From positions 32,001 to 96,000 of IMG/VR virus record IMGVR_UViG_3300032298_001311: a DNA stretch of 64,000 bases, one strand, 5' to 3'. Within the stretch, counting starts at the first letter, position 1. Each line of letters begins with the position of its first letter. Shown one piece after another: positions 21,991 through 22,186 of the stretch. Source of the DNA: a virus. The position numbers and the translations under genes are program-made. The notes beneath the pieces were generated by a model, which had not been told where the DNA came from, did not search any database, and worked only from the letters and a program-made list of their open reading frames with translations.

Positions 21991-22023
21991 ACAACAAAAA
22001 ACCCCGGACTATTAATCCGGGGT
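21991..22023 (-). terminator. Intrinsic terminator of candidate attenuator
   Basis: ACCCCGGA-7nt-TCCGGGGT followed by TTTTTGTTGT. Confidence 0.8.
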
Positions 22024-22050
22024 CTTTAAAGCATATATGTGATTCTCAAA

Positions 22051-22125
22051 TCACCACGCCAGACCCCGACTGGTATCTTCATACCAGCACATAATCTTAT
22101 TAATGTTACAATGGCGTTGGGTCAT
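22051..22125 (-). CDS. Candidate 24-aa leader peptide MTQRHCNINKIMCWYEDTSRGLAW
   Basis: Between a consensus promoter and a terminator; its 3' codons contain CGGGGTCT, complementary to the terminator 5' arm. Confidence 0.5.
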   Translation of the reverse strand: MTQRHCNINKIMCWYEDTSRGLAW

Positions 22126-22157
22126 TATTGAACTCACTAATCCTTTATTGTCTTTTA

Positions 22158-22186
22158 TTTATACACGCAGATTAAAACTATGTCAA
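22158..22186 (-). promoter_or_regulatory. Sigma70-type promoter TTGACA-17-TATAAA
   Basis: Read directly, upstream of the leader ORF. Confidence 0.7.

Follow-up and report, generated by a model that had tools for sequence, protein, structure and literature searches.

Attenuators and the Regulation of Phage tRNA Genes

The closest described systems are the enterobacterial attenuators of the trpL, hisL, leuL and pheL type (RF00513, RF00514 and relatives), in which a short leader ORF with a run of codons for a single amino acid precedes an intrinsic terminator and the genes of biosynthetic enzymes behind it. In the multivalent attenuators, such as the ilvGMEDA, ilvBN and thr leaders, shortage of any of several sampled amino acids leads to read-through. 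A model of multivalent attenuation is available (PMC1183508). In the attenuators of vmlR, msrD and other antibiotic-resistance genes, read-through takes place when translation of the leader slows in a general manner (PMC9226507, bioRxiv 10.1101/2021.11.29.470318). Moreover, the trp attenuator of Sinorhizobium frees a small RNA, rnTrpL, that acts in trans (PMC6614838).

No paper on the attenuation of tRNA genes was found in the literature, in agreement with the first-pass annotation of the DNA analysed here, which knew of no described example of a leader of this kind. To our knowledge, the regulation of phage tRNA genes is essentially unknown. These genes are now viewed as a counter to host defences that cut tRNAs (PMC10264068, PMC11555353). 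Huge phages carrying pmoC, the kind to which the phage of the window belongs, are known from methane-rich lakes, and tRNA regulation is absent from the paper concerned (PMC7674155).

Architecture and Distribution of the Leader

The window, a stretch of 64,000 nucleotides, belongs to a source record of 128.8 kb (IMG/VR) with a completeness estimate of 36%, and the genome that hosts the leader is that of a huge freshwater phage with pmoC, 20 tRNA genes and a permuted tmRNA. On the minus strand, a promoter (P1) is followed by a leader of ~26 nt, an ORF of 24 codons, a terminator, a further promoter (P2) and tRNA-Glu(UUC). All the elements listed in the first-pass annotation were found at the positions it gives, and the features of the locus are the following:

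22156-22186, minus strand: promoter P1, with TTGACA at 22186-22181, a 17-nt spacer, TATAAA at 22163-22158 and the octamer TATAAATA at 22163-22156
22126-22151, minus strand: 5' untranslated leader, with a weak Shine-Dalgarno-like GUGAG at 22136-22132, 7 nt before the AUG
22051-22125, minus strand: leader ORF, ATG at 22125, TGA at 22053-22051, 24 codons, 17 kinds of amino acid
22112-22117, minus strand: region 1, 5' strand of the 1:2 helix, codons 3-5
22069-22088, minus strand: hairpin A, 8 pairs and a 4-nt loop, inside the ORF and directly 5' of region 2
22055-22068, minus strand: region 2, G-run at 22068-22061 and the following 6 nt, pairing with region 1 or region 3
22039-22054, minus strand: hairpin B, 6 pairs, tip of the antiterminator, its 5' arm carrying the stop codon
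22018-22035, minus strand: region 3, linker at 22035-22030 and terminator 5' arm (from 22027), complementary to region 2
21996-22027, minus strand: intrinsic terminator, stem of 22027-22014 with 22010-21997, 14 pairs, T6 tract
21962-21990, minus strand: promoter P2, with TTGACA, 17 nt and TATATT, 11 of 12 matches, resembling P1
21879-21953, minus strand: tRNA-Glu(UUC), the first gene reached by read-through

Elsewhere in the window, a stand-alone pmoC/amoC-like gene is located at 23832-24599 (minus strand), and the relative of this gene in L141 carries Pfam AmoC. The permuted tmRNA, with a tag of 14 residues, was located by ARAGORN at 45836-46239 (minus strand).

Homologues of the leader were reached by synteny via neighbouring proteins, by degenerate DNA patterns and, in some relatives, by a small ORF 3' of the element. 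Seventeen distinct homologues were obtained, all of them in uncultured freshwater phages of the pmoC-carrying kind; ten are close, with 80–95% identity over the alignment, and seven are distant (L155, L157, L158, L159, L160, L161 and L167). Common to all 17 are TTGACA followed by a spacer of 16–17 nt and TATAAATA, an ORF of 23–28 codons that begins with AUG, a terminator, and a long antiterminator hairpin in which the terminator 5' arm serves as the 3' strand and the stop codon lies in the 5' strand. The first-pass annotation had proposed, as a check, to search relatives for the same geometry with compensatory changes, and the answer is positive, given these 17 homologues and an antiterminator helix that covaries among them.

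Among cultured phages (INPHARED, searched with blastn), the tRNA alone was matched and the leader had no counterpart. Further copies of the leader were found neither in its own record nor in 150 loci. A search of Rfam with 20500-24500 at E values up to 10 returned no family at threshold and no match to a T-box or other riboswitch, the best match being His_leader (RF00514), with 24.6 bits against a gathering cut-off of 49 and an E value of 0.57; L157, L158 and L161 gave no riboswitch or T-box match either. Three sequencing runs compared with 20800-23800 contained short contigs of relatives only, probably derived from DNA, and gave no information on transcript ends, starts or read-through.

A Terminator and an Antiterminator That Exclude Each Other

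No intrinsic terminator on the coding strand of the 128-kb record is stronger than that at 22027-21997, whose 14 pairs and T6 tract bear out its earlier description as strong. In all classes the terminator hairpin reaches -14 to -23 kcal/mol, and its top pairs show compensatory changes. Segment 2 of the first-pass annotation (22068-22061) is, as had been claimed, the perfect complement of 22025-22018 within the terminator 5' arm. This pairing forms the outer helix (22068-22061 with 22025-18) of an antiterminator that is a three-part hairpin of ~20 pairs, continuing with a middle helix between the next 4–6 nt and the linker at 22035-22030 and ending in hairpin B as its tip. The 2:3 part of this structure had been recognized at first sight, while the covarying hairpin B and the three-part form as a whole had been missed. 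Since terminator and antiterminator share a strand, the two folds are mutually exclusive. A transcript cut just 5' of the terminator 3' arm folds as the antiterminator in all 11 classes, with -20 to -33 kcal/mol, and the full-length RNA folds the terminator instead; when the cut transcript (ending before region 4) is considered without a ribosome, the antiterminator wins in nine of the ten close variants.

In the window, the outer helix consists of GGGGUCU/AGACCCC, compared with GGGGUUC/GAACCCC in L155, GGGGUCC/GGACCCC in L167, AGGGGC/GCCCCU in L159 and GGGGGC/GCCCCC in L160. The helix slips by one base, so that column-wise counts failed, and the table of antiterminator pairs was anchored on the G/C block of the 17 variants instead:

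Position +1: U-A 13, U-G 1, C-G 3
Position +2: C-G 11, U-A 3
Position +3: U-A 10, C-G 3
Position -4: C-G 9, A-U 1, G-C 1, G-U 1

Compensatory changes are thus present at three to four positions of the G-run/C-run helix. Within the terminator, the partner of the covarying bases is the U tract or else follows the change (L158, L160) and, therefore, the changes in the G-run strand are explained only by antiterminator pairing.

Hairpin B is 100% paired, with a double change from U-A to G-C and one insertion that lengthens the stem, and its loop is fully replaced in L144 and L143. The hairpin with a GAAG loop, which had already been pointed out, is present at 22088-22069 as hairpin A; its pairing amounts to 96% in the close clade, the L159 type has its two arms swapped, and another hairpin takes its place in L167. 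It is considered highly probable that the element is a cis-acting terminator/antiterminator switch.

Two other pairings were tried and rejected. A long-range pairing between the 5' leader and the hairpin B region, which appears in full-length minimum-energy folds, is broken by the loop replacements in L144 and L143, which hairpin B survives; a one-sided improvement of this pairing in L140 and L139 leaves some room for it. RNAalifold proposed that the 5' end (AGAC) pairs with the final part of segment 2, which is invariant and, hence, uninformative.

As the strand that sequesters segment 2, the first-pass annotation had named GACCC at the start codon. This motif is in the sequence and is lost in relatives, and the real partner strand lies at 22117-22112 (region 1). 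Region 1 pairs with the 6 nt 3' of the G-run, forming 6–8 pairs in five sequence classes of the close clade, each in one of two registers, and this 1:2 helix includes a double change from C-G to A-U. Within the close clade, cognate strands reach -11.0 kcal/mol versus -7.4 kcal/mol for non-cognate strands (rank 2 of 120 permutations), and the 1:2 helix uses bases of the antiterminator middle helix, as in classical attenuators. A pseudoknot in which it is present together with the outer 2:3 helix is conceivable, too. Beyond the window, the 1:2 complementarity is strong in L140, L157 and L159 (z -2.9 to -3.8) and weak in L155, L158 and L167. Regarding the 1:2/2:3/3:4 layout proposed at first, the 2:3 and 3:4 pairings stand on covariation and exclusive folds, and the 1:2 pairing is supported in the close clade, L157 and L159 and is weak in the three distant leaders just named. 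As far as such comparisons of variants can tell, the classical attenuator layout is well supported.

The Leader ORF and Its Codons

The leader ORF is open, initiated by AUG and 23–28 codons long in all 17 variants. A comparable ORF occurs in 13–21% of dinucleotide shuffles per class, and six of the classes are widely diverged. In the window, the 24 codons and 17 kinds of amino acid agree with the earlier description. Within the close clade, a single indel is found in the ORF, of 3 nt, and indels of 1 nt are frequent outside it. The stop codon lies 12–15 nt past the start of the G-run in all variants but L160 (19 nt), and it is always placed within the 5' strand of the antiterminator; these distances are such as a terminating ribosome can span. 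Upstream of the AUG, by 5–9 nt, all eleven classes examined have a GAG or AAGG motif, and the Shine-Dalgarno position is occupied by AAGG in L158, AAGGA in L157 and GAGAG in the L159 type; the Shine-Dalgarno sequence of the window leader is weak compared with those of the real genes of the phage. The 5' leader is nearly invariant in the close clade, and a G[GA]AUAC motif is conserved as well.

In the N-terminal half of the ORF, substitutions are mostly non-synonymous, which indicates that only the reading frame, and not its product, is conserved. Where residues are conserved, they fall on RNA helices, and the third codon positions there are invariant as well; in L140 the last codon was turned into a stop by a change that completes an RNA pair. 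A W-Y-E-D stretch is common to four classes. Judging from the substitutions, the ORF has the hallmarks of a frame that needs to be read and not those of a protein that needs to be produced. In addition, a His codon (22113-22111 in the window) is found at position 4–7 in 16 of the 17 variants, amid codons that turn over, and tRNA-His is encoded ~900 nt downstream of it in the window.

Most variants contain 16–18 kinds of amino acid in 23–28 residues, with 15 in L136, and no codon run is present in any of the 17. Compared with windows of the phage's own proteins, whose mean is 13.0, this diversity has P ~0.012 in four of the six diverged classes and P 0.002 in L167. The wide sampling without a codon run that had been noticed in the window is, thus, a property of most of the family. 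At loci where the tRNA array is largely known, phage tRNAs read 14 of the 16 codons 2–17 for the L137 leader with the L138 tRNAs (P 0.007) and 15 of 16 for L155 (P 0.009), while the last seven codons of the ORF, which are fixed by RNA pairing, match the tRNAs at background level. In the window, where the genome is 36% complete, the match amounts to 19 of 23 codons overall (P 0.05) and to 13 of 16 in the sensor part (P 0.14); its misses TGG and TAT correspond to tRNAs that are present in relatives and absent from the recovered part of the genome. The claim that the leader codons are read by tRNAs of the array holds, therefore, where the array is largely known, and is marginal in the window.

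Because the leaders sample 16–18 amino acids, mostly singly and mostly by codons of phage tRNAs, the likely signal would be a shortage of any of many charged tRNAs. A sensor for all amino acids, which would detect the shortage of almost any charged tRNA, including those cut by host anticodon nucleases, is put forward tentatively and at somewhat less than even chances. A Glu-specific sensor, suggested by an otherwise invariant GAA at codon 16 beside tRNA-Glu, was rejected: L167 has no GAA at this position, and tRNA-Glu is not the next gene in L155, L158 and the L159 type.

Promoters and the Genes Behind the Terminator

Both hexamers of P1 and the octamer TATAAATA are invariant in all 17 homologues, and the spacer is free to vary, being nearly all replaced in L144. 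The consensus promoter claimed at 22158-22186 is confirmed by these invariant hexamers, and P1 is, by the same conservation, a real and strong promoter; it was passed over by the promoter scan solely since the final base of its -10 element is A. Its exact type occurs a single time in the 128-kb record. The possibility that TATAAATA is a T4-type late promoter was rejected, as it is not enriched in the record (12 occurrences on the coding strand versus 13–18 expected).

P2 begins seven bases past the terminator and ends 8 nt before tRNA-Glu. The caveat in the first-pass annotation that a second promoter-like sequence occupies 21962-21990 was justified: P2 is real, with its 11 of 12 matches, and it is kept in most close relatives, being degraded in L143 and L136 and absent in L140. 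Since tRNA-Glu has this conserved promoter of its own, read-through can only add to its transcription in the window. A gene that appears to have no promoter of its own behind the terminator is found in L155, L157-L167 and L136, as well as in L140, which has no P2, and is not found in the window, where P2 intervenes. Moreover, TTGAC directly after a terminator recurs at two further places of the genome (~45144 and ~60241), so that the leader junction could be ordinary punctuation between units.

In L152 and L153, the leader is deleted and tRNA-Glu is kept under a hybrid of P1 and P2. At L152:440-500, and in the same way in L153, a P2-like -10 region directly 5' of tRNA-Glu is preceded by the upstream half of P1, and the deletion looks as if it had come about by recombination between the similar P1 and P2.

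Near-consensus sigma-70 promoters also end 7–10 nt before the mature 5' ends of several tRNA genes, and such promoters are about ten times commoner on the coding strand:

23774-23746: promoter of tRNA-Ser
21990-21962: promoter of tRNA-Glu (P2)
9075-9047: promoter of tRNA-Leu
C1:98111-98083: promoter of a tRNA gene outside the window

In relatives, a promoter of the P1 type (TTGACA, 17 nt, TATAAATA) also drives a permuted tmRNA-like gene and dnaK, which hints, at the level of promoter sequence, that genes for translation rescue and for chaperones may be expressed as one class:

L170:1501-1830, L172:1501-1830 and L173:1501-1600: P1-type promoter before the permuted tmRNA-like gene or dnaK

Directly behind the leader, tRNA-Glu(UUC) is encoded in all ten close variants, even amid different gene contexts, and no other strong terminator was found on the coding strand between 21997 and the end of the array. 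In L136 and the seven distant variants, a strong Shine-Dalgarno sequence and a Lys-rich ORF of 51–52 aa are situated within 10–20 nt of the terminator. The tRNA array described behind the terminator is therefore correct for the window and does not extend to the more distant relatives, in which the 52-aa ORF comes first. The tRNAs of these relatives are separated from this ORF (in L140, from the terminator) by a structured RNA motif of ~100 nt that is conserved:

L155:2272-2430, L082:6929-7084 and L157-L167:1501-1659: ORF of 51–52 aa, starting MKWPKL, with a strong Shine-Dalgarno sequence
L155:2433-2533, L157:1664-1764, L158:1663-1763 and L140:2722-2819: RNA motif of ~100 nt

No sigma-70-type promoter was found between the terminator and the 52-aa ORF in a scan of L155 and, thus, this gene appears to need read-through. 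By its gene order, a terminator followed by a promoter-less ORF, as in these relatives, is the arrangement of a true attenuator. The product of the ORF is basic, has no Pfam match and gives only a weak PHROG match of unknown function. In the recovered part of the window's genome its gene was not found, and L136 is the only member of the close clade that has it; the RNA motif matches nothing in Rfam and does not occur in the window's record. Comparison of these arrangements suggests as the likely history that the window's clade lost the 52-aa ORF and gained P2.

Two further observations concern the tRNA arrays. At the end of the tRNA block of L158, a match to skipping-rope RNA (RF02924) is found at L158:2884-2977, with 46.6 bits against a threshold of 36.7. 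The window encodes a tRNA-Thr with anticodon AGU (A34) at 21089-21164 (minus strand), which is kept in the arrays of relatives.

Proposed Mechanism and Alternative Explanations

In the proposed mechanism, P1 would start a transcript of ~160 nt in which the 24-codon ORF runs through four pairing regions. Region 1 would correspond to codons 3-5, region 2 to the last 5–6 codons (the G-run and 6 nt), region 3 to the linker and the C-run of the terminator 5' arm, and region 4 to the 3' arm and the U tract. Regions 2 and 3, together with the tip provided by hairpin B, would form the antiterminator and exclude the terminator. A ribosome that has arrived at the stop codon would cover region 2, allowing the terminator to form and transcription to end, whereas a ribosome held at approximately codons 2-16 would mask region 1 and free region 2, so that the antiterminator forms and RNA polymerase reads on. 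In the window, read-through would enter tRNA-Glu and the array behind it, adding to the output of P2; in the distant relatives it would enter the promoter-less 52-aa ORF, the structured RNA and the tRNAs. The purpose would be read-through into the tRNA array, and into a small basic protein in relatives, upon a shortage of charged tRNAs.

The confidence given to the parts of this proposal differs. The leader is probably a cis-acting attenuator of the leader-peptide type, and it is rated as fairly probable that translation of the leader sets the switch; that the ORF is translated, in which direction the switch works and what it responds to are inferred. Counting against the attenuator are P2 in the window, the lineage of L152 and L153 that lost the leader and kept tRNA-Glu, the recurrence of TTGAC directly after terminators, the weak Shine-Dalgarno sequence of the window leader, the absence of a codon run, the preference of the cut transcript for the antiterminator even in the absence of a ribosome, the weak 1:2 pairing in L155, L158 and L167, and the marginal codon match in the window. 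A purpose in relieving tRNA shortage or countering host defences is a possibility to which rather less than even weight is given. With respect to the interpretation in the first-pass annotation, exclusive folds, an open ORF and amino-acid diversity have been retained, while its segment 1 and the dependence of tRNA-Glu on read-through have been given up, the latter owing to P2.

The transcript could also be mainly a stand-alone or dual-function small RNA, abundant and structured, of 160 nt, which acts in trans and has only a secondary connection with the gene behind it. A strong promoter and a strong terminator of its own, a fold z-score of -5.1, an A/U-rich stretch 5' of the terminator hairpin with a long U tail 3' of it, and the nearly invariant 5' leader are all in keeping with such a role, as are the own promoter of the next gene in the window's clade and the commonness of terminator-promoter junctions in the genome. 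However, a small RNA would need neither a mutually exclusive antiterminator kept by compensatory changes nor an ORF that is open in 17 variants with a fixed stop position, and a promoter-less gene right behind the terminator is present in 8 of the 17 (L136, L155, L157-L161 and L167, the promoter scan being that of L155), which together make this explanation unlikely. Considered quite unlikely is a terminator/antiterminator switch that is set by an RNA-binding protein, a small ligand or a tRNA, with an incidental ORF. The architecture has its support at the RNA level only, the Shine-Dalgarno sequence of the window is weak, and the conservation of the 5' leader and of the G[GA]AUAC motif is left without explanation, all of which would suit this type of switch; a candidate for the protein is the Lys-rich 52-aa product of the relatives, which is basic, belongs to no known family and would act on the leader of its own gene. 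Nevertheless, conservation of the ORF, its AUG, length, stop position, diversity and codon choice is unexpected for an incidental frame, the leader is conserved in the close clade although the 52-aa gene is absent there except in L136, and the Rfam search up to E 10 gave no riboswitch or T-box match.

An ordinary gene for a small protein of 24 residues, with RNA helices that are incidental or serve mRNA stability only, is very improbable. The ORF is conserved in all variants and four classes share the W-Y-E-D stretch, as would be expected of such a gene, but the substitutions are mostly non-synonymous and the classes share little sequence. Furthermore, the residues that are conserved fall on RNA helices with invariant third codon positions, the exchange of arms in the L159 type alters the peptide and keeps the helix, and the change that turned the last codon of L140 into a stop improved RNA pairing. 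Attenuation governed by translation of the leader is the preferred reading.

If it is correct, tRNA genes would for the first time be known to be under the control of an attenuator, and a virus would measure the translation state of its host and respond to it. If the leader also senses a shortage of almost any charged tRNA, this would amount to a self-correcting supply circuit for viral tRNAs and to a counter to defences that target tRNAs. The 17 natural variants with their compensatory changes constitute a ready-made set of mutants for reporter tests in laboratory strains.

Comparison with Known Attenuators

As in the case of rnTrpL, the terminated phage leader would be a stable, structured small RNA that could act in trans. 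With the resistance-gene attenuators, the phage leader shares a short leader ORF, a terminator/antiterminator pair and, in the proposed mechanism, read-through upon a general slowing of leader translation. However, those attenuators are bacterial, answer ribosomes with a bound drug and govern ABCF or efflux genes, whereas the phage leader heads tRNA genes and no drug-specific arrest motif is evident in it. The multivalent attenuators resemble it in that one leader peptide samples several amino acids, although they sample two or three of them in runs, while the phage leader samples 16–18 by single codons and, thus, should be much less sensitive per codon.

The likeness to the trpL, hisL, leuL and pheL attenuators includes the same layout of four regions, with 2:3 and 3:4 pairings and a probable 1:2 pairing, a short ORF that extends from a point 5' of region 1 to a stop codon at region 2, an intrinsic terminator and, in the phage relatives, a gene apparently without own promoter behind it. 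Unlike these enterobacterial attenuators, the phage leader has no codon run for a single amino acid and contains nearly every amino acid once, its antiterminator has an extra hairpin over the stop codon, and its carrier is a phage, in which tRNA genes and a 52-aa ORF, and not the genes of biosynthetic enzymes, lie behind it. In this comparison, the phage leaders make up a new family, in which a known mechanism would be put to a new use.
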